From an uncultured Candidatus Saccharibacteria bacterium (GTDB taxonomy: Bacteria; Patescibacteriota; WWE3; UBA101185; UBA10185), in contig CAZXUJ010000001.1 in assembly GCA_964643995.1 (NCBI GenBank), positions 337,492 to 401,491 of the forward strand: DNA of 64,000 nt, in the 5' to 3' direction. The translations under genes were made by a program, and so were the position numbers. Shown piece after piece: positions 1,842 through 63,630 of the stretch. Positions within the stretch are counted from its first letter, which is position 1; each line of letters begins with the position of its first letter. Under the pieces are notes generated by a model. The model saw nothing but the letters and a program-made list of their open reading frames with translations, did no database searches and had not been told where the DNA came from.

Positions 1842-3383
1842 ATGACAAAGATCGAACTAGAAATACATGATGATATTCTTTCCGCATTAGAGAAAATCAA
1901 GAATGTTGACGACCATGGTATTGAACTTATAATCCCAGAGGGATCAGTACTATTCGATAATATCATCAATCTAAAACTACTTGAAAAAGAAGCGGAAAAA
2001 GTAGAAAAAACTCTCCACTTTTCAACAACAGACAAATATGGTCTTAACATCATCGCGGAACTTACTAGTGAGGATTCTCCTGAAGACCTCACGGCAAAGG
2101 AATTCGCCATGGATGAATCTCACCATGAAGAGTCACGATCAAGAAGAGAACCCAAATTTCACGGCCAAAATGCCTTTGCCTCAATAACAAACAGACTTAA
2201 AACACGCAAATCAAAACTCTTCAAACTCCTGCTCATAATGGCAATAATTTTAGGTTTAGGAACTTATGGCGCAGTATACGCACTACAAACTGTACCAAAG
2301 GCTAACGTTAAAGTAATAGTGAATTCACAACCCTTAACAAAAAGTGTGCAAATAAAAGTGATTAAAGATGGTAGTTCGAATGCAGACTCGAAAATTCTCA
2401 AAGGCCACCAGGTAGATACTGTAGTATCAATAACTGAAGTAACCCCTGCCACAGGTGAAAGACTTATTGGAGAAAACGCTGAAGGAAAAATTCGTATTTT
2501 CAACAAAACTATCACTGAAAAAGAGTTCAAAAAAGGACATCTTGTCAGAATAGAGGAAGATGATGAGGAGTTGGAGTATAAACTAAAGGAAACTGTTACT
2601 GTACCAGCAGGAACAGAAGATCCAGACACACACGTCTTCACACCGGGAATTGCCAATGCCAACGTAACAGCAACAGATATTGGCGAGGTATACAACATAG
2701 AGGATGGAAAAGATTTAGAAGTCGACGACGAGGACACTTCAGATTTTATTGCTGAGAGTGATAAAGATTTTTCGGGTGGTAAGAGTGAAAAAATTCTTGT
2801 AGTAACCGAAGCTGACAAAACTTTACTCATAAACAATGCATTGAAAAAAAGTCAGGAAAATATAGAAAGTAACCTGGAAGCTAAAAATTCTACAAGCAGA
2901 AAATATATCAAGGGATCATTTAGCTCAAAAGTAGTTAAAGAAGAGTTCAGTCATGAAATAGACGAAGAAGCAACTGAACTAGAATTAAAGCAAGAGTTAC
3001 TTATAACTGGTCTGGCATACTCGGAAAATGAACTAGATCAGTTACTTTCCAAATTGGTAGAGGGACTGATACCAGACGGGTATACCCTATCATCGCAAGA
3101 TAAGGAAATAAAAGTTGAAGTTTTGGGTAATACTGAAACGACAGTTGCTTCAACAGATGAAGCAGATATTCAGGTGACAATAAAAGCCTTTGTGATAACT
3201 ATTATTGAGCAAGATGATTTAACAGCACAAATGGTGGGAAAACCAATTGAAGAAGCACAAAAAATACTTGGCGGTATAAAGAATATCCAAACGTATGAGC
3301 TTAACGTGTCACCAAGCATACCGTTTTTACAGAAAATGCCGACAAATCCAGAAAACATTAATTTGACTATTGAAAAACAATGA
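1842..3383 (+). CDS. Hypothetical membrane-anchored acidic protein
   Basis: 513-aa ORF with a single hydrophobic segment (LFKLLLIMAIILGLGTYGAVYAL) around residue 130 and a long Asp/Glu/Thr-rich region after it. Start follows the previous stop by 2 nt. Confidence 0.45.
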   Translation: MTKIELEIHDDILSALEKIKNVDDHGIELIIPEGSVLFDNIINLKLLEKEAEKVEKTLHFSTTDKYGLNIIAELTSEDSPEDLTAKEFAMDESHHEESRSRREPKFHGQNAFASITNRLKTRKSKLFKLLLIMAIILGLGTYGAVYALQTVPKANVKVIVNSQPLTKSVQIKVIKDGSSNADSKILKGHQVDTVVSITEVTPATGERLIGENAEGKIRIFNKTITEKEFKKGHLVRIEEDDEELEYKLKETVTVPAGTEDPDTHVFTPGIANANVTATDIGEVYNIEDGKDLEVDDEDTSDFIAESDKDFSGGKSEKILVVTEADKTLLINNALKKSQENIESNLEAKNSTSRKYIKGSFSSKVVKEEFSHEIDEEATELELKQELLITGLAYSENELDQLLSKLVEGLIPDGYTLSSQDKEIKVEVLGNTETTVASTDEADIQVTIKAFVITIIEQDDLTAQMVGKPIEEAQKILGGIKNIQTYELNVSPSIPFLQKMPTNPENINLTIEKQ

Positions 3384-6364: not shown

Positions 6365-7543
6365 ATGCGTGCAGAATACTCTCCAAAAAAATATTATATA
6401 AAAACTTTGGGTTGCCAAGCTAACGTTGCGGATTCAAACACCATTTGTGGAGTACTAGAGGCCCTTGGTTTTGAGGCAACAACACAAATTCAAGATAGTG
6501 ACCTTGCAATCGTAAATACTTGTTCAATAAGGCAAAAAAGCGAAGATAAAGTTTACGGGATGGGGAAAATATTCTTGGGCGAACATGCCCAAATCGAACC
6601 AGAAAATAAACCGTTCGTAGTCATGGCAGGGTGCATGGTGGGATCAGTGACAGGGGAACGTCAAAGATATCAATTCGAGGAACTAAAGAAAAAAACTCCA
6701 TGGGTTGATGAATATATTAACCCTTCACAAATAATGGAACTGCCAACGATACTACAAAAACACCATATATTAGACAATTGGGCAGTTAAAAAATTTGATC
6801 CGGAAAATATAGTTACGGTTCAAAATGATAAAAAAAACGCTTTTGTAAATATTTCCTATGGATGTGACAACTTCTGCACATTTTGCGTTGTACCTTATGC
6901 ACGAGGTAAAGAGATCTCAAGGAGTGAAGAGGCTATTTTGAAGGAGATAAATCATCTGGTTTCACGAGGTTTTACCAAGATCACACTCTGTGGACAAAAC
7001 GTAAACTCCTGGGGACTGAATATGAGGGACAAGTTCGAGATCAGAACTGGTAGCGACCAAAACTTACCATTCGCACAACTACTTAGAAAAGTTCATGACG
7101 TTGCGCAAATCGAAAAAATAAGCTTCTTGTCGTCTAATCCTTTTGATTTCACAAATGACCTAATTCAAACACTAAAACTACCAAAAATATCAAACTACCT
7201 TCATATGGCTATTCAGTCAGGGAGCAATGAAATATTAAAAAAAATGAACCGAAGACATACCATTAAGGAATTTAAGGATTTGGTAAAAAAGCTAAAAAAA
7301 GCTCGCCCCGATATTGAGTTCGGAACGGATGTCATTGTCGGATTTCCGACTGAAACCGAAGAACAATTTCTGGAAACGGTGAAACTTTTTCAAGATGTTA
7401 AATTTAATGTGGCGTTTATATCTATCTACTCACCAAGAAAAGGGACGCCAGCACAAAAGTTTTTTAAGGATGACGTCCCGTTCAAAGAGAAAAAAAGACG
7501 GCACGCAGTACTAACTAAAGTTTGGCAGGAATCCTTAAAATAG
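6365..7543 (+). CDS. miaB: tRNA methylthiotransferase, MiaB-like (radical SAM MTTase)
   Basis: N-terminal YIKTLGCQANVADS, radical-SAM CDNFCTFC cluster, and a TRAM-like C-terminus. Immediately upstream of miaA. Confidence 0.8.
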   Translation: MRAEYSPKKYYIKTLGCQANVADSNTICGVLEALGFEATTQIQDSDLAIVNTCSIRQKSEDKVYGMGKIFLGEHAQIEPENKPFVVMAGCMVGSVTGERQRYQFEELKKKTPWVDEYINPSQIMELPTILQKHHILDNWAVKKFDPENIVTVQNDKKNAFVNISYGCDNFCTFCVVPYARGKEISRSEEAILKEINHLVSRGFTKITLCGQNVNSWGLNMRDKFEIRTGSDQNLPFAQLLRKVHDVAQIEKISFLSSNPFDFTNDLIQTLKLPKISNYLHMAIQSGSNEILKKMNRRHTIKEFKDLVKKLKKARPDIEFGTDVIVGFPTETEEQFLETVKLFQDVKFNVAFISIYSPRKGTPAQKFFKDDVPFKEKKRRHAVLTKVWQESLK

Positions 7544-40196: not shown

Positions 40197-40703
40197 TTAT
40201 TGCAATATTTTTGTCATATCTTCTAATAGTGTTTGGCAAAGTTTTTTATTCTCATCTTGTTGCTCTTTTGTAAGAATGTATTGTTCTTTTGTTTGAAAAT
40301 CCATGAGAGCAATAGTTTCGTTATTTGCCTTAAAATACACAGGGTTTAAAACAAACAGTGAATGTTTTACTAAATTTAAAATTTTATTGAACTTCTCTAA
40401 ATCACTAATGATTCTTAGATGCTCTTCTGTGGTAATACCTACCAATTGTAAGTCTATAGATTTAAACTTAGTAAGGTGTTTCCCTAACATGCCTGAGTTT
40501 ACGGGCTGTTCAAACATTTCCAACACTTGCGATAAACTTAGTATAAGGCTATTTCCTAAGGACAATATTGCTCCCATATACATCCATACTCTTTGTATAT
40601 ATTGATCCGCAATTGTTGGTCCATCAGTTGTTTTTTGTATATATATCATCTTCAACGATTTTAGCATTTTAAGTTGCCGTGTTATTAAAAGTATGTCATC
40701 CAT
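40197..40703 (-). CDS. Hypothetical protein
   Basis: 168-aa ORF diverging from the recombinase gene; no family recognised. Confidence 0.35.
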   Translation of the reverse strand: MDDILLITRQLKMLKSLKMIYIQKTTDGPTIADQYIQRVWMYMGAILSLGNSLILSLSQVLEMFEQPVNSGMLGKHLTKFKSIDLQLVGITTEEHLRIISDLEKFNKILNLVKHSLFVLNPVYFKANNETIALMDFQTKEQYILTKEQQDENKKLCQTLLEDMTKILQ

Positions 40704-40710
40704 TGTGTAG

Positions 40711-42006
40711 ATGACTAAAGCAAAAGAAGAATTAAAATACTGTCTTTATGCTCGCAAAAGTTCGGAATCAGATGAACGGCAAGCACGTTCAATAGAATCT
40801 CAAATTAATGAAATGCAGGAACAAGCAAAGAAAGAAGGATTGAATATCGTAGAAGTTAAAAAAGAGTCGCACAGTGCAAAGATATCGGGGACACGACCTG
40901 TATTCTTGGAGATACTTAAAGAAATTAATTTAGAAAAATACAATGGGATTTTAGCTTGGTCACCAGACCGATTGAGTAGAAATGCAGGAGACTTAGGAAG
41001 TTTAGTAGATTTGATGGATAGAAAGAAACTTGTTCATATTAAAACTTATTCTCAATCTTTTACCAACAACCCAAACGAAAAGTTTTTACTTATGATTTTA
41101 TGTTCCCAAGCAAAGCTAGAGAATGACAACAGATCGCTACATGTTCAAAGAGGTATTAGAAACAAATGTGAAATGGGTTGGAGACCTTGCCCTGCACCTA
41201 TTGGCTATATTAATTACTCCCATGAAGGCACTAAAAAAGTGATGCTTGATAAAGAAGCAGCTCCCTATGTAAAGGAACTGTTTGAACTTGTAGCCCATGC
41301 AAACTATAGCGGAAGAGATTTAAGAGAACATCTAAAACAAGATAAAAATCTCCGACGACTAACTAACAAGAAAATATCTTTAAGTATGATTTATACAATA
41401 TTGAAAACGCCTTTTTATTACGGTGAATTCGAATATCCACAAGGAAGTGGGAAATGGTACAAAGGTGCTCACGAACCCATAATTGAAAAGTGGCTATTTG
41501 ATAAAGTGCAAAGGAAATTAGTCACTTCAAAAAAATCGAAATGGGGTTCAACTTTCTTTTTATTTAAGCATGTATTCAAGTGTGCTTATTGTGGAGCAAA
41601 CTTTGTTGGTGAAGAAAAACATAAAATGCTCAAAGGTGGAAAGAAAAGGACATATACATATTATCGCTGTTCCAGGCAAGTGGATCCGAACTGTGAGGAA
41701 CCGTATGTAAATGAAAATGAATTAATTGGTGAGTTAATCAATTATGTGGGATTGATAGAAAATAAGAGAGACTCAAACCTACATCTAAACAGTAAAATCA
41801 GAGGCAGAATGGATAAATTTACCAAGTTAAGAATGTCTTTACTTGAAGGAAAGAATATAAAAGTCCACGAAAAAGTAACATTTACGGAGTATTTCAAATA
41901 CATTATTTATAATGGAACTAAAGAAGAAAAACAGGAAGCAATTGAAACACTGAAACTACCGTTATTCATTCACAATAAGACTGTTTACACACATCCGTTA
42001 GGATAA
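40711..42006 (+). CDS. Large serine recombinase (resolvase/invertase catalytic domain + recombinase domain + zinc ribbon)
   Basis: N-terminal YARKSSESDERQARSIESQ with a catalytic Ser context and ...SPDRLSRN. A C-terminal Cys cluster (CAYCG ... CSRQVDPNC) forms a zinc-ribbon-like element. 431 aa. Confidence 0.8.
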   Translation: MTKAKEELKYCLYARKSSESDERQARSIESQINEMQEQAKKEGLNIVEVKKESHSAKISGTRPVFLEILKEINLEKYNGILAWSPDRLSRNAGDLGSLVDLMDRKKLVHIKTYSQSFTNNPNEKFLLMILCSQAKLENDNRSLHVQRGIRNKCEMGWRPCPAPIGYINYSHEGTKKVMLDKEAAPYVKELFELVAHANYSGRDLREHLKQDKNLRRLTNKKISLSMIYTILKTPFYYGEFEYPQGSGKWYKGAHEPIIEKWLFDKVQRKLVTSKKSKWGSTFFLFKHVFKCAYCGANFVGEEKHKMLKGGKKRTYTYYRCSRQVDPNCEEPYVNENELIGELINYVGLIENKRDSNLHLNSKIRGRMDKFTKLRMSLLEGKNIKVHEKVTFTEYFKYIIYNGTKEEKQEAIETLKLPLFIHNKTVYTHPLG

Positions 42007-42010
42007 AACA

Positions 42011-42730
42011 TCAAATATTTTCACTAAGTTCAAAAACTTCCCTTTTCGAAGGGAGAGGTAAGGGACTTTTCCCAAAAACAACTTTTTTATTTGTCCCAAG
42101 AGAAAATTTACATGAATCAGGTTTTGAATAGTTATTACCATCATTAACAACATCAATTTCTATTGATTTATCTAGTTCCGGCCAAATTCTAGTAAGCACA
42201 AAAGTTTTATTTGGTTTTGGAATAGGACCTATAAGGTATACTGCTGGTTTTGGCTTTATTTCCCTAATTTCATCATGAACCTTTTTGTGATTAATATGTA
42301 CGTTGTTCTTTGTGATATTGCAAAGGATTATAGTCTTGTCGTCATATGCCTTTTTCGCAAGCTTAGGTGATAGTTTAGTATTTATAAGGAAAGTACCTAA
42401 ATCGAGCGACTCTCTTTCTGAGTATTCAACTACTTCCACATCCTGGAGATTCATGTGTACTGGTTTGTCGTCAGACTCTACTAGATTCATTGTTACTATA
42501 TCTGGAGAGTCATTTATAGCTTTGGGTACCTGCATCATGAAGTGCAATCTTGTAAACTTGTTAATTCCTAGTAGCGCTATTGCTACAACTTTTGCTTCTA
42601 TAACTTTTTTAAATTCTCTGGAAGTTAATACTTTGTCCCCATACGTTTTTAGTAGTTCATCGTAATAAACCAGAACTAATCTAGGGGAAACCCAGCATTT
42701 CTCTTGTGCATTATAATAATCTAGTGACAT
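42011..42730 (-). CDS. Hypothetical protein
   Basis: 239-aa ORF between the recombinase and tRNA-Pro; no family recognised. Confidence 0.4.
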   Translation of the reverse strand: MSLDYYNAQEKCWVSPRLVLVYYDELLKTYGDKVLTSREFKKVIEAKVVAIALLGINKFTRLHFMMQVPKAINDSPDIVTMNLVESDDKPVHMNLQDVEVVEYSERESLDLGTFLINTKLSPKLAKKAYDDKTIILCNITKNNVHINHKKVHDEIREIKPKPAVYLIGPIPKPNKTFVLTRIWPELDKSIEIDVVNDGNNYSKPDSCKFSLGTNKKVVFGKSPLPLPSKREVFELSENI

Positions 42731-42779
42731 ATCTGGATGTTAGCATAATTGCCGTCAACTGATGAGTTATACTTAGTTT

Positions 42780-43004
42780 ATGGATAAGAAAGTTCTTATT
42801 GAAAAACTTAAAAATGCTAGATCGACTATGGTTTTGGAAAGAACCCTCATTCAAGTCTTTGAAGATATGAACTATAAAAACAATCATATAGATTTTGAGG
42901 CTTTCAAGAGGGAGCTTGGCTCTGACATCGCAGTATACATCTCAAAAACTTTGGGTGATGGTAGGGGTATAGTAGAGATTCTTGAAGATCACTATAAAAA
43001 ATAG
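42780..43004 (+). CDS. Hypothetical small protein
   Basis: 74-aa ORF; weak support. Confidence 0.3.
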   Translation: MDKKVLIEKLKNARSTMVLERTLIQVFEDMNYKNNHIDFEAFKRELGSDIAVYISKTLGDGRGIVEILEDHYKK

Positions 43005-43125: not shown

Positions 43126-43202
43126 TGGTCGGGGTGACAGGACTCGAACCTGCGACCTCACGCACCCCATGCGTGCGCGCTAGCCAACTGCGCCACACCC
43201 CG
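43126..43202 (-). tRNA. tRNA-Pro (anticodon GGG)
   Basis: Minus-strand cloverleaf: acceptor CGGGGUG/CACCCCG, D-stem GCGC/GCGC, anticodon stem CACGC/GCGUG with loop AUGGGGU, T-loop UUCGAGU, discriminator A, and encoded CCA. Confidence 0.85.
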
Positions 43203-43258
43203 ACGTATTCGGCGGGATGGTAGTGATGTACTTATCACGTCACACCCCGACGTATTCG
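43194..43258. repeat. Direct repeat (18 bp x2) comprising the tRNA-Pro 5' end plus flank, bracketing a tRNA-5'-half-like hairpin mini-element
   Basis: CACACCCCGACGTATTCG occurs at 43194-43211 and again at 43241-43258. Between the copies the minus strand reads GUCGGGGUGUGACGUGAUAAGUACAUCACUACCAUCCC. Confidence 0.6.
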
Positions 43259-43332
43259 AACAGGTGAATAATACCATTTACATGACATCGCCAACCATAT
43301 ATGAAAAAATTAATGTATAGGAGGTGATAATA

Positions 43333-51177: not shown

Positions 51178-51694
51178 CGAAATTCATTAGGGCTTCTTTT
51201 GAAGTTGCGGCAAGCTCGCCTCGAGCAGCCATCTCCTTGATCTCATCCCTTGTACACCACAATGACGTCGTATGTTCAGGTGAATGACTGACTTCGTAAC
51301 CGTCAGTTAGAGCTATTTGAAGATAAGTGTTGGCGGGTACGCCATCATACTTCCCACCCTTCATAACACGGGTACTTTGCATATCTAGCTGATCTGGGAG
51401 AGTTATTTGTAACCCTGTTTCCTCAGCTACTTCACGAACTATACTTTCTGCGACAGTCTCACCGGGGTCAATTTTTCCTCCTGGGAGTTCAAACTTACCG
51501 GCATCAAATGAACCTTCTGAACGCTGTAATAATAGGGCACATGTTTGGCCATTTACTTCACTTAAGATGATAGCGCGCGCCATGTTAAGTTCTTTTGGGG
51601 TTTCAACTGATGGTATTGTGTTTGGAGACACAAAAGCGACTTCTGGTAAGGGAGACACAATTTCATGTGTTGCTGATTCTGTTCTTGGTGCCAT
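51167..51694 (-). CDS. NUDIX hydrolase
   Basis: Nudix box GGKIDPGETVAESIVREVAEETGL. Confidence 0.7.
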   Translation of the reverse strand: MAPRTESATHEIVSPLPEVAFVSPNTIPSVETPKELNMARAIILSEVNGQTCALLLQRSEGSFDAGKFELPGGKIDPGETVAESIVREVAEETGLQITLPDQLDMQSTRVMKGGKYDGVPANTYLQIALTDGYEVSHSPEHTTSLWCTRDEIKEMAARGELAATSKEALMNFVNL

Positions 51695-51772
51695 TAATAA
51701 ATAATGCTATATATAATAAAAAATGTCTACAAAATTGACACTATTTGGGAGCAGGAATATAACTAAGTGAAT

Positions 51773-51846
51773 GTCGGGGTGTGACGTGATGAGTACATCA
51801 CTACCACCCCTCCTTCGTCGGGGTGTGACGCTGACGCTACCACCCC
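51773..51846 (+). repeat. Two tandem tRNA-5'-half-like mini-elements upstream of tRNA-Pro(CGG)
   Basis: GTCGGGGTGTGACGTGATGAGTACATCACTACCACCCC at 51773-51810 and GTCGGGGTGTGACGCTGACGCTACCACCCC at 51817-51846. Each begins like the tRNA-Pro acceptor/D region and ends CACCCC. The first copy is near-identical to the element upstream of tRNA-Pro(GGG) at about 43212-43255 (minus strand). Confidence 0.6.
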
Positions 51847-51855
51847 TCATTTCTT

Positions 51856-51931
51856 CGGGGTGTAGCTCAGTTGGTAGAGTGCACGATTCGGGTTCGTGAG
51901 GCCGAGCGTTCGAGTCGCTCCACCCCGACCA
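51856..51931 (+). tRNA. tRNA-Pro (anticodon CGG)
   Basis: Acceptor CGGGGUG/CACCCCG, D-arm GCUC-AGUUGGUA-GAGU, anticodon stem CACGA/UCGUG with loop UUCGGGU, T-arm GAGCG-UUCGAGU-CGCUC, discriminator A, CCA encoded. Confidence 0.85.
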
Positions 51932-51992
51932 GTAAACTAATTTCATAGTGTTACATATTGCAATATATATTGGTGTTTAGTAATGTTTAGAA

Positions 51993-54540: not shown

Positions 54541-56220
54541 ATGAGATACTCCAAACTTTTCGGCAAAACAGTCAAACAAGCAAAAAAAGACATGTCTGCA
54601 ACTTCACACAAGTTGTTGTATCAAGGTGGATTTATAAGAGAAAGTGTTGCCGGCAGATATTACATGCTGCCTCTCGGAATGCGAGTGCGCAATAAAATTA
54701 TTGGGATTATACGTGAAGAAATGGATAAAACTGGCGCACAAGAAATGTTATCCCCAGTACTCCACCCTCTTGAATTATGGAAAGAAACCAATCGAACTAA
54801 TACAGCAGGCTTTGAGCTCATGGTTGTAGCTGACAGGCGCGGTGGTGAATTTGCCTTAGGCGGAACAGGAGAGGAAATGTTCGTTGATGCAGTACGCGGA
54901 TTTACACTGTCTTATAAGGATCTTCCTATAAATATCTACCAGGTATCTTCAAAGTTTCGTGATGAGATTAGAGTCAAGGGCGGTTTGATGAGAACACGTG
55001 AATTTACCATGAAAGATGCTTATTCCTTTCACACTGACGAGGAAGAATTCAAAACAGAGTATGCCGTAATGGCTAGCACTTACACCCAAATTTTTAAAAG
55101 ATTAGGACTCGCTACAACTATGGTTCTTGCAGACAATGGCTACATCGGAGGCGAATACTGTCATGAGTTTGTAGTTGAGAATGATGCAGGGGAAAGCAGA
55201 TATTTTGTAAGTGAGGATGGTAAATATATTGCACATGAAGATGTCGCCGAATTTATACGTAATGAAGTAAATGTTGATGATGAGATTTTAGACTTAGAGA
55301 CTATTGAGCAACCTGAATGGGTTCAAACTATGGAGCATAACGAAAAGCATTACAAACTACCTGCGAGCAGATTTTTAAAGAATGTTGTTTATAAAAACCG
55401 AGTAACAAACGAGATAATTATTGCCGTGATAAGAGGCGACCTTGAGATCAACAAAACAAAACTTGAGCATGTTCTTGATGCAGTAGGACAGCTCGATGAC
55501 GCTACGGACGAAGACCTACAAAAACTAGATACAAAAACAGGTTATGTTCATTCATGGGGGCATACTGCTAGATATATCGGAGATGTTTCATTAAAGACAG
55601 TGAAAAACTTTATTGGGGGACAAAAAGAAGAAAAAACCGACACTCGAAACGTTAACTATGGAAGAGATTTTTCATGTGAGATTTTAGCAGATATTGCCTT
55701 GGCAAAAGACGGTTTTACTGCACCAAACGGCAGCAAACTGATCGAGAAAAAGGGTATTGAGGTCGGAAATATTTTCCAGCTTGGACTTCATTACTCAACA
55801 AAAATGGCAAATGCTGTCTTCACTTCTCAAGAAGGCACAGAAGTCCCTTACTATATGGGTTGTTACGGAATCGGTATCGAACGAACACTAGCAACAATAG
55901 TTGAAAATCATAGTGATGAGCGAGGGATAATTTGGCCTGAAAACGTAGCACCGTTTAAAGTGCACTTAATTGGACTTAATCTTGAAGATGAGCAAATCCG
56001 TAGCAAGGCCGAAGAAATATATAACCAACTTACCAAACAAGGCGTAGAAGTGTTGTTTGATGACCGCTTTGAAAGTTCAGCAGGTGAAAAGTTTGCGGAT
56101 GCTGATCTTATCGGATGTCCTTATAGAGTGGTGGTCTCAAAAAAAACAGGAGATCAAGTCGAAGTTAAAAAACGAAATGAAAAAGAAGCTAAATTAGTAG
56201 ACCTAGCCAATATCTTCTAG
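54541..56220 (+). CDS. proS: Prolyl-tRNA synthetase (bacterial type with insertion domain)
   Basis: N-terminal KLLYQGGFIRESVAGRYYMLPLGMRV..., class II motifs (FRDEIRVKGGLMRTREFTMKDAYSF), and a C-terminal anticodon-binding domain. Confidence 0.85.
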   Translation: MRYSKLFGKTVKQAKKDMSATSHKLLYQGGFIRESVAGRYYMLPLGMRVRNKIIGIIREEMDKTGAQEMLSPVLHPLELWKETNRTNTAGFELMVVADRRGGEFALGGTGEEMFVDAVRGFTLSYKDLPINIYQVSSKFRDEIRVKGGLMRTREFTMKDAYSFHTDEEEFKTEYAVMASTYTQIFKRLGLATTMVLADNGYIGGEYCHEFVVENDAGESRYFVSEDGKYIAHEDVAEFIRNEVNVDDEILDLETIEQPEWVQTMEHNEKHYKLPASRFLKNVVYKNRVTNEIIIAVIRGDLEINKTKLEHVLDAVGQLDDATDEDLQKLDTKTGYVHSWGHTARYIGDVSLKTVKNFIGGQKEEKTDTRNVNYGRDFSCEILADIALAKDGFTAPNGSKLIEKKGIEVGNIFQLGLHYSTKMANAVFTSQEGTEVPYYMGCYGIGIERTLATIVENHSDERGIIWPENVAPFKVHLIGLNLEDEQIRSKAEEIYNQLTKQGVEVLFDDRFESSAGEKFADADLIGCPYRVVVSKKTGDQVEVKKRNEKEAKLVDLANIF

Positions 56221-63541: not shown

Positions 63542-63630
63542 GGAGGGTTGGCAGAGTGGTAATGCAGCGGCTTGCTAAGCCGTCATCGGGTAAAACCGAT
63601 GCGTGGGTTCAAATCCCGCACCCTCCGCCA
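63542..63630 (+). tRNA. tRNA-Ser (anticodon GCU)
   Basis: Acceptor GGAGGGU/ACCCUCC, anticodon loop UUGCUAA, long variable arm (CAUCGG-GUAAAA-CCGAUG), T-loop UUCAAAU, discriminator G, CCA encoded. Confidence 0.85.

Follow-up and report, generated by a model that had tools for sequence, protein, structure and literature searches.

Partial copies of a tRNA gene beside the intact gene are known from tyrT of Escherichia coli, where 178-bp repeats each carry the last 19 nucleotides (nt) of tRNA-Tyr; these tandem units are co-transcribed with the gene, and their copy number changes through unequal recombination or slippage. Direct repeats of a tRNA segment around other sequence are also the mark of attL/attR remnants, and integrases that target tRNA genes reportedly duplicate, in the classical case, 3′ parts of the gene. 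In precursor tRNAs (pre-tRNAs), the leader can pair with the trailer or with the acceptor strands, and such pairing modulates cleavage by RNase P. Bacterial RNase P itself reads the acceptor stem stacked with the T stem, contacts nucleotide N-1 and the 3′ RCC, and takes minihelix and hairpin substrates, as do the CCA-adding enzyme and some synthetases (PMC11221534). Here we describe three small hairpins, units A, B and C, in the predicted leaders of the two proline tRNA genes on a 64-kb stretch of contig CAZXUJ010000001.1 from a WWE3 bacterium (the window hereafter), each closed by a copy of the acceptor 5′ strand of the tRNA that follows.

The locus resembles each of these systems in part. 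As at tyrT, tandem units lie beside a tRNA gene and contain a terminal piece of it; however, the tyrT repeats are downstream and hold the 3′ end only, whereas the present units are upstream, join the 5′ end to a complementary strand and conserve hairpin pairing. As in att remnants, direct repeats of a tRNA segment (17 nt at tRNA-Pro(GGG), 16 nt of the 3′ end in the relative L050) flank other sequence, but here the 5′ end is duplicated, the 22-30-nt insert is noncoding and complementary to the repeat, and no integrase or attP counterpart was found. With minihelix substrates (PMC11221534) the units share an acceptor-closed hairpin, a single-stranded 5′ leader and a U at -1, yet they are natural, genomic and in cis to a tRNA, contain an internal loop and lack both RCCA and T-loop. 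Leader-acceptor pairing is the same in kind, in that the leader can pair with acceptor strands, in predicted competition with the native fold; what differs is that the competing sequence repeats the 5′ strand of the tRNA itself exactly and comes together with its antidote strand. We know of no description of such a self-copy-plus-antidote leader, and none of such tRNA leaders was found in the literature searched.

The feature is real, structured, clade-conserved, derived from a tRNA and in cis to one, and is best filed among tRNA-gene-associated partial duplications. In the reading that we favour, and to which we give about an even chance, the units are leader modules derived from tRNA-Pro that are self-paired since unpaired copies would trap the tRNA, that would be removed by RNase P, and that would have no separate function.

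Three hairpin units in two tRNA-Pro leaders

ARAGORN finds three tRNA genes in the window: tRNA-Pro(GGG) at 43126-43202 (-), tRNA-Pro(CGG) at 51856-51931 (+), which encodes its CCA, and tRNA-Ser(GCU) at 63542-63630 (+); the proline genes score 60.4 and 64.2 bits, respectively, against Rfam RF00005. Two units stand in tandem 5′ of tRNA-Pro(CGG), as a first-pass annotation of this DNA had described. Unit A (type 1; 51773-51812, +; -19.1 kcal/mol, z score -2.9; 60.7 bits with CM R1, our covariance model of the units) has the sequence GTCGGGGTGTGACGTGATGAGTACATCACTACCACCCC over 51773-51810, and unit B (type 2; 51817-51848, +; -12.9 kcal/mol, z score -1.5; 47.9 bits) has the sequence GTCGGGGTGTGACGCTGACGCTACCACCCC over 51817-51846, leaving a spacer of 9 nt before the tRNA begins at 51856. 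The mirror element placed by that annotation at tRNA-Pro(GGG), on the opposite strand, is unit C (type 1; 43212-43251, -; -15.3 kcal/mol, z score -2.3; 58.3 bits), whose core at 43214-43251 (-) lies directly 5′ of the gene. Its match to unit A had been recognised too, with an identity of about 90% that proves slightly low (36 of 38 positions, 95%). The 14-mer GTCGGGGTGTGACG, allowed up to three mismatches, has six matches against 0.98 expected, a count reached in none of 100 shuffles, and every one of them is a unit or the end of one of the two tRNA-Pro genes. Units A, B and C are thus confirmed as real and as tied to the two tRNA-Pro leaders.

The GGG and CGG leaders, copies of one another in inverted orientation, stand at the inner ends of a block (43.3-51.8 kb) running from the RDD gene to the NUDIX gene, with both tRNAs read outward; the inverted pair around this block, units and tRNAs alike, 8.6 kb apart, had been described correctly. 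At the GGG locus, two perfect copies of the 17-nt direct repeat GAAUACGUCGGGGUGUG, made up of 8 leader nt and tRNA positions 1-9, flank a 30-nt insert. Read from the sequence, the upstream copy occupies 43241-43257 (-), and the downstream copy at 43194-43210 (-) is the true leader with the first 9 nt of tRNA-Pro(GGG). The direct repeats at the CGG locus are shorter.

A unit consists, in order, of GU, CGGGGUG (equal to tRNA positions 1-7), UGAC, a variable inner hairpin, UAC, and CACCCC or CAUCCCG. In all three window units CGGGGUG pairs with CACCCC or CAUCCCG as an outer helix, and the 4 × 3 internal loop UGAC/UAC interrupts the helix. In unit A the outer helix joins CGGGGUG at 51775-51781 to CACCCC at 51805-51810, and the inner helix joins GUGAUG at 51786-51791 to CAUCAC at 51796-51801 around the loop AGUA. 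Unit B pairs 51819-51825 with 51841-51846 and has the same internal loop, with an inner helix of only GC/GC around UGAC. In unit C, CGGGGUG at 43249-43243 pairs with CAUCCCG at 43219-43213, and 43238-43233 with 43228-43223. Folded with RNAfold, as had been proposed at the outset, all three form two-helix hairpins, which are both the minimum free energy and the centroid structure. The elements are therefore not the 'tRNA halves' of the first description: each has the acceptor 5′ strand and a complementary 3′ strand, and is a closed hairpin. Each type-1 unit is, at the DNA level, an imperfect palindrome of 36-38 bp.

The units match no known RNA class in our searches. Rfam returned nothing for them at E ≤ 1, and only the two tRNA-Pro genes matched between 42.5 and 52.5 kb; on the leaders of nine related loci, no T-box or other cis-regulatory RNA matched at E ≤ 0.1. 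As tRNA genes they were rejected, since ARAGORN finds only the three true tRNAs and the units are 30-38 nt long with two helices.

The acceptor-like outer helix raises the question of released minihelices: RNase P would also cut 5′ of C+1 of a unit, and the resulting acceptor mimics would bind or titrate RNase P, the CCA-adding enzyme or prolyl-tRNA synthetase (ProRS). U stands at -1 in eight of the nine units with a tRNA-like outer helix, mostly within GU at -2/-1, the ProRS gene lies 2.6 kb away, and bacterial RNase P does take minihelix and hairpin substrates and contacts N-1 (PMC11221534). Beyond a helix closed by the acceptor-stem sequence, however, the hallmarks of a tRNA-derived minihelix are missing from the units: the 4 × 3 loop breaks the continuous 12-bp acceptor/T stack, the loops are AGUA or UGAC and not a T-loop, and the degenerate 3′ tails (UCC, UCA, GCC, UAC) offer no RCCA. 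The version in the relative L003 is a long rod, and bacterial ProRS depends on the anticodon. We regard released minihelices as very improbable.

The units lie in predicted pre-tRNA leaders

A probable promoter of the tRNA-Pro(CGG) transcript, TTGACA at 51735-51740 and TATAAC at 51758-51763 with a 17-nt spacer (51735-51763, +), was read from the sequence and is conserved in L003; our promoter scan demands T at position 6 of the -10 hexamer, and hence did not list TATAAC. Its predicted start, at about 51770, lies 3-5 nt before unit A. For tRNA-Pro(GGG), the extended -10 element TGgTATTAT, read from the sequence at 43268-43276 (-), is identical in L048, L049 and L050 and predicts a start at about 43261. 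Scans of both regions revealed no promoter-like or terminator-like sites between the units and the tRNA. With a promoter directly upstream and no such site before the tRNA, the units would form the 5′ leader of each pre-tRNA, and RNase P, cutting at tRNA +1, would remove them. The third tRNA gene of the window, tRNA-Ser, lacks a unit and begins only about 10 nt after its -10 element.

Several minor features overlap this region. A second promoter-like site, GTGCCA-18-TATAAT (10 of 12 positions; 51688-51717, +), lies about 45 nt upstream of TTGACA-17-TATAAC, and its -10 element is not conserved in L003. A leader peptide was considered at the CGG locus, where a leaderless AUG at 51771, coinciding with the predicted transcript start, opens a 44-codon frame (51771-51905, +) with two Pro-Pro pairs that runs through the units; the GGG locus has no counterpart, and we take the frame as chance. 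An intrinsic terminator or attenuator was likewise rejected, the terminator scan giving no site in either region (tails UCCUUCGU, UCAUUUCUU and CCGAAUAC). On the opposite strand, antisense to the units and the tRNA, a 79-codon open reading frame (ORF; 51707-51946, -) is annotated as a gene on the public contig L002. It is almost certainly spurious, and would be a caution to annotators of such regions.

The fold is conserved within a clade

Contigs of relatives were obtained through homologues of the NUDIX and RDD neighbour proteins, whose closest named homologues belong to candidate division WWE3. Ten units are known: three in the window and the rest in four related WWE3 lineages, with one each in L048, L049 and L050, and two each in L184 and L003. 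Contigs L003-L011 (NUDIX protein 66% identical) and L049 were counted as one species, S2; L005 and L049 share one metagenome assembly. The unit of L048 (RDD protein 89% identical) is nearly identical to unit C. That of L049 (RDD 67%) has the inner helix GCGAUG/CAUCGC and the 3′ strand CACCUCU, and L050 (RDD 58%) carries a type-2 unit reading, in order, CGGGGUG, UGCC, GC, UAAC, GC, UAC and CAUCCCG. In L184 (RDD 55%) two units stand in tandem, with inner helices GCGACC/GGUCAC and GCGAUC/GAUCAC. L003-L011 of species S2 present one 115-nt leader that has the same 5′ part, an inner unit whose entire outer helix has been exchanged for CGAAAG/CUUUCG, and a distal CAUCCCG. This CGG leader of L003 (2812-2927, -) is a near-perfect inverted repeat predicted to fold into a single rod some 100 nt long (-55.2 kcal/mol, z score -7.5), which by its length is a candidate substrate of RNase III. 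Because the architecture of the L003 leader differs, what is conserved is self-pairing and not one fixed shape; common to the predicted structures of the relatives is that each tRNA-like strand finds its complement within the leader.

The structure was examined on nine aligned units (alignment A3), with 500 column shuffles and with pairing partners slid by 1-3 columns. Standard pairs fill 91.4% of the cells, as against 39-60% with slid partners; two-sided changes occur in 8 of the 13 pairs; and none of the 500 shuffles matches the observed values. The inner helix occurs in the versions GUGAUG/CAUCAC, GCGAUG/CAUCGC, GCGAUC/GAUCAC and GCGACC/GGUCAC, with three covarying pairs from independent lineages. 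The fold is therefore conserved, and its inner helix has undergone independent compensatory changes.

In GW2011_GWC1_41_7, a more distant WWE3 genome (RDD 53%), the synteny of RDD and tRNA-Pro(GGG) is kept, with a 12-nt leader and no unit. By these comparisons the units appear to be a clade-restricted innovation, present in one or two copies per locus and with two types of inner hairpin. As for additional copies, on which the first-pass annotation had made its proposal depend, the window has none besides A, B and C, whereas related WWE3 lineages have further units. Nor do the units behave as a dispersed repeat of the repetitive extragenic palindrome or miniature inverted-repeat transposable element kind, being confined within the 64-kb window to the two tRNA-Pro leaders by CM R1 and by pattern searches. 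Run on the window and on about 130 other tRNA-Pro loci, CM R1 matched only its training units and tRNA-Pro genes. Among genome representatives of 185,579 species, a scan that returned no WWE3 genome, the pattern GTCGGGGTGTGACG-N4-24-CTACC gave 34 chance matches in GC-rich, unrelated taxa with no adjoining tRNA. The search for further relatives of the CGG locus through its 419-residue neighbour protein ended at a best homologue (42% identical) without synteny, and two RDD homologues had lost synteny.

Origin of the units and probable exchange between the loci

The elements had been proposed at first sight to derive from tRNA, and CM R1 bears this out: built from the units, it also recognises the acceptor stem of every tRNA-Pro gene, with a score of about 22 bits. 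The 5′ part of a unit is a copy of the leader with tRNA positions 1-9 to 1-13; the UGGCGC of the second L184 unit and of the inner L003 unit matches tRNA positions 8-13 exactly. For the 3′ half two sources compete. That of unit B aligns with the 3′ end of tRNA-Pro(CGG) (CGCU-CCACCCC, 11 of 12) and with the reverse complement of tRNA positions 1-16 (14 of 16), both near the 99th percentile of shuffles and with about equal scores. To judge from these alignments, the 3′ strand may stem either from the tRNA 3′ end, brought close by deletion of the interior, or from the 5′ end copied in inverse orientation. In either case the units have the look of tRNA gene copies, shortened by internal deletion or folded back, that stand in tandem with the gene.

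Tandem repeats of tRNA sequence could also be integration scars, attL/attR remnants of elements aimed at the 5′ end of tRNA-Pro, as the first-pass annotation had suggested in speaking of tRNA-targeting integrases. The 30-nt insert of the GGG locus does lie between two copies, without mismatch, of a 17-nt direct repeat that includes a tRNA segment. Small repeat-flanked insertions do occur at this gene, too: downstream of it in L050, two copies of a 16-nt repeat of the tRNA 3′ end bracket some 130 nt. The 3′ end of tRNA-Pro(GGG) is 1.1 kb away from a gene for a large serine recombinase, and at some other loci of Candidate Phyla Radiation (CPR) bacteria an upstream fragment has an acceptor sequence unlike that of the intact tRNA. 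The insert, however, is no mobile element: its 22-30 nt make up a strand that is the complement of the repeat, an outcome not expected of integration, and the duplicated part is the 5′ end with leader sequence, not the 3′ end. Large serine recombinases leave only a 2-bp core, and the gene for the one in the window is beyond the opposite end of the tRNA; none of the ORFs adjoining either tRNA-Pro locus was recognised as a tyrosine integrase. No repeat of the tRNA 3′ end that could serve as an att partner was found elsewhere in the window. Synteny of RDD and of NUDIX with their tRNAs is intact around both loci, and that of RDD and tRNA is unbroken in the unit-less outgroup as well. A search of 2.9 million viral contigs returned nothing for the tRNA pattern and, for a relaxed unit pattern, 12 matches in GC-rich phage contigs that we ascribe to chance. 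We consider an origin as integration scars improbable.

Unit C differs from unit A at 2 positions and from its own orthologue in L049 at about 8, and from this we infer that sequence has moved between the two inverted loci; the comparison suggests an exchange between CGG and GGG. The same observation could speak for a function at the DNA level, with the units serving in inversion or gene conversion of the 8.6-kb block, or their palindromes serving as protein-binding sites. The geometry would allow it: inverted repeats, the A/C pair (36/38) and the two tRNA genes, lie 8.6 kb apart at both ends of the block, and the type-1 units are imperfect palindromes. An inversion is geometrically possible, but the earlier suggestion of one found no support in the contigs compared. 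Gene order and orientation at both block ends are as in the window in S2, on separate contig pieces and with the whole block on no single contig; an independent assembly of the same species as the window agrees. A flip of the block would merely swap the promoters of the two tRNA genes. As for the recombinase, it belongs to the large integrase type, and the L050 flanks that were recovered did not show it. The inner helix covaries, and type-2 units are without it, so that an RNA stem fits better than a fixed binding site. A DNA-level function is accordingly highly improbable in our view.

Predicted effect on precursor folding

Folding of the precursors was predicted from nearest-neighbour thermodynamics, a model that ignores tertiary structure, modifications and the order of folding during transcription. 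For the GGG precursor, the model gives the native acceptor stem a probability of 1.0 when the leader is 10 nt long and of 0.51 when it is the natural one; scrambling the 3′ strand of the unit lowers this to 0.16, and scrambling the 5′ strand to 0.01. Each unit strand alone is thus predicted to be strongly disruptive, and together they largely cancel. In the CGG precursor a swapped fold (-73.3 kcal/mol) is favoured over the native one (-63.0 kcal/mol): GU-CGGGGUG of unit B pairs with the tRNA CACCCCGAC, and the 3′ half of unit B pairs with tRNA positions 1-16. On these predictions the leader is not inert.

They also lend themselves to the main rival explanation, a cis-regulatory strand-swap switch in which the units compete for the acceptor strands and the precursor splits between a native and a dead-end fold. 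In the native state the units would be closed and the cloverleaf native, and RNase P would yield tRNA; in the dead end, the 5′ strand of a unit would lie on the tRNA 3′ end while its 3′ strand sequesters the tRNA 5′ end. Temperature, transcription speed, a chaperone or a helicase would then set the yield of two minor proline tRNAs. The predicted swapped fold is competitive in both precursors, and the GU before the unit lengthens the swapped stem to 9 bp with A73-C74. Units are present at both tRNA-Pro genes of the window and absent from tRNA-Ser, and they have been kept in several lineages despite their deletion-prone direct repeats. Against a switch stands its purely thermodynamic basis, blind to tertiary structure, modifications and kinetics; local hairpins, moreover, are the first to form during transcription. 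Close relatives differ in architecture (two small hairpins versus the 100-nt rod of L003), which is unusual for a tuned switch; there is no evident sensor or ligand; and the more distant WWE3 genome has no units. A switch is possible but, on balance, rather unlikely. If the leaders did control precursor folding, this would be the first bacterial tRNA to regulate its own maturation by a built-in copy of its acceptor strand.

Proposed self-neutralised leader modules

The interpretation that we prefer, self-paired leader modules derived from tRNA-Pro, would account for these observations as follows. A unit would be a small hairpin module composed of a leader copy, the first 9-13 nt of the tRNA, and a complementary 3′ strand taken from the tRNA 3′ end after internal deletion or from an inverted copy of the 5′ end. 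The units would be co-transcribed as the 5′ leader of the pre-tRNA and discarded when RNase P cuts at tRNA +1. They would multiply and shrink through slippage at direct repeats of their own making, and sequence would pass between the two tRNA-Pro loci. Selection would maintain self-complementarity, as a copy of either acceptor strand, left unpaired, would anneal to those of the real tRNA and so prevent its maturation; closure of the hairpin would largely neutralise the copy. The CGG and GGG proline isoacceptors are reportedly dispensable in E. coli, which would fit a relaxed constraint on their leaders. We propose no separate function in trans, and nothing points to a trans-acting small RNA. 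The earlier term 'regulatory RNA' could apply only to a possible cis effect on the maturation of the same transcript. Should the units be only self-neutralised debris, they would still illustrate how a harmful partial gene copy is tolerated through compensatory pairing.

Several points weigh against this interpretation. A single unit, the inner one of L003, accounts for five of the eight double changes, so that covariation of the outer helix traces largely to one event, and the sequences are few and related. The CGG precursor model favours the misfold by about 10 kcal/mol; taken at face value, the units would not be harmless, and purging would be expected unless they are useful or the model is wrong. 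Units persist in lineages that share only 55-58% identity in their RDD proteins, although the direct repeats around them should promote precise loss, and this retention hints at a positive function that our model does not supply. The UGAC/UAC internal loop is conserved, for which the model gives no reason. Finally, transcription of the leader and its removal by RNase P are steps that we infer.

Self-copies in the tRNA leaders of CPR bacteria

A scan of JGI metagenomes with a pattern for the D arm and anticodon arm of tRNA-Pro(CGG/GGG) gave at least 120 loci. Scoring as a self-copy any exact sense copy of at least 12 nt of the own tRNA within 250 nt upstream, across all fetched loci (102 distinct tRNA-Pro loci), we found one in at least 16 of the 102, and none with reversed or antisense controls. 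The self-copy loci sampled come largely from CPR bacteria (for example L170 4364-4460, -; L071; L085 7045-7170, +; L109; L131; L155; L122; L096), and neighbour proteins place three of the loci in Candidatus Kerfeldbacteria, Candidatus Komeilibacteria and an unclassified Patescibacteria bacterium. Among L063-L182, leader copies are often 100% identical over 12-40 nt, in sense and in gene order. They mostly begin at tRNA position 1, just after promoter-like sequence, and GC-rich hairpins often interrupt them at about position 12/13, in the D loop after CAGUU, or in the anticodon loop. Within 250 nt of tRNAs, perfect hairpins rich in GC reach 6.5 times the density that they have elsewhere, where 'elsewhere' is mostly coding sequence. 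Similar leader copies occur at tRNA-Leu, tRNA-Ala, tRNA-Asn and tRNA-Thr on the same contigs. In L080 and L136 a simple hairpin is closed by a copy of the own, different acceptor strand (CGGGGUA or CGGGCUA), following the same logic as in the window. Leaders of this kind belong to no Rfam family.

The window units might accordingly be the smallest members of an undescribed class of leaders, widespread among CPR bacteria, in which copies of the tRNA 5′ sequence alternate with conserved hairpins, and which gates maturation through competition for the 3′ acceptor strand or acts as a decoy for a factor binding or attacking tRNA. We consider this unlikely; if true, such a class would regulate genes at the level of tRNA in a way not known from bacteria. 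The self-copy pattern matters under either reading, is cheap to survey and is apparently undescribed, and the main value of the units lies in the entry that they offer to this broader habit of CPR tRNA leaders.

One module recurs among these loci: two consecutive 6-bp hairpins with 3-nt loops follow the CAG(UU) of the D loop in copies of three tRNAs, at L124 3850-3956 (tRNA-Ala), at L128 1-84 (tRNA-Thr), and at L085, L109 and L179 (tRNA-Pro). Its stems covary between loci (TCGGCC/GGCCGA, TCGCCC/GGGCGA, CCACCC/GGGTGG and others). In L085, a weak match to the T-box leader (29.4 bits; gathering score 93) lies at 7266-7425 (+), directly 3′ of the tRNA-Pro gene.

Neighbouring genes and insertions

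Downstream of tRNA-Pro(CGG), by 2.6 kb, lies the ProRS gene proS (54541-56220, +), an arrangement conserved in L003. Three genes without Pfam matches, for proteins of 84, 419 and 324 residues, lie between the two, and the upstream region of proS, at 113 nt, is too short for a T-box.

The large serine recombinase gene on the 3′ side of tRNA-Pro(GGG) (40711-42006) encodes Resolvase, Recombinase and Zn-ribbon domains. Together with three ORFs without Pfam matches it fills 40197-43004, directly beyond the 3′ end of the tRNA, and this segment is probably an integrated element unrelated to the units. In L050, the 16-nt repeat of the tRNA-Pro(GGG) 3′ end, CCTGTCACCCCGACCA, is present at 2650-2665 (-) and 2803-2818 (-) around an insert of about 130 nt with inverted repeats, which looks like a miniature att-flanked insertion.

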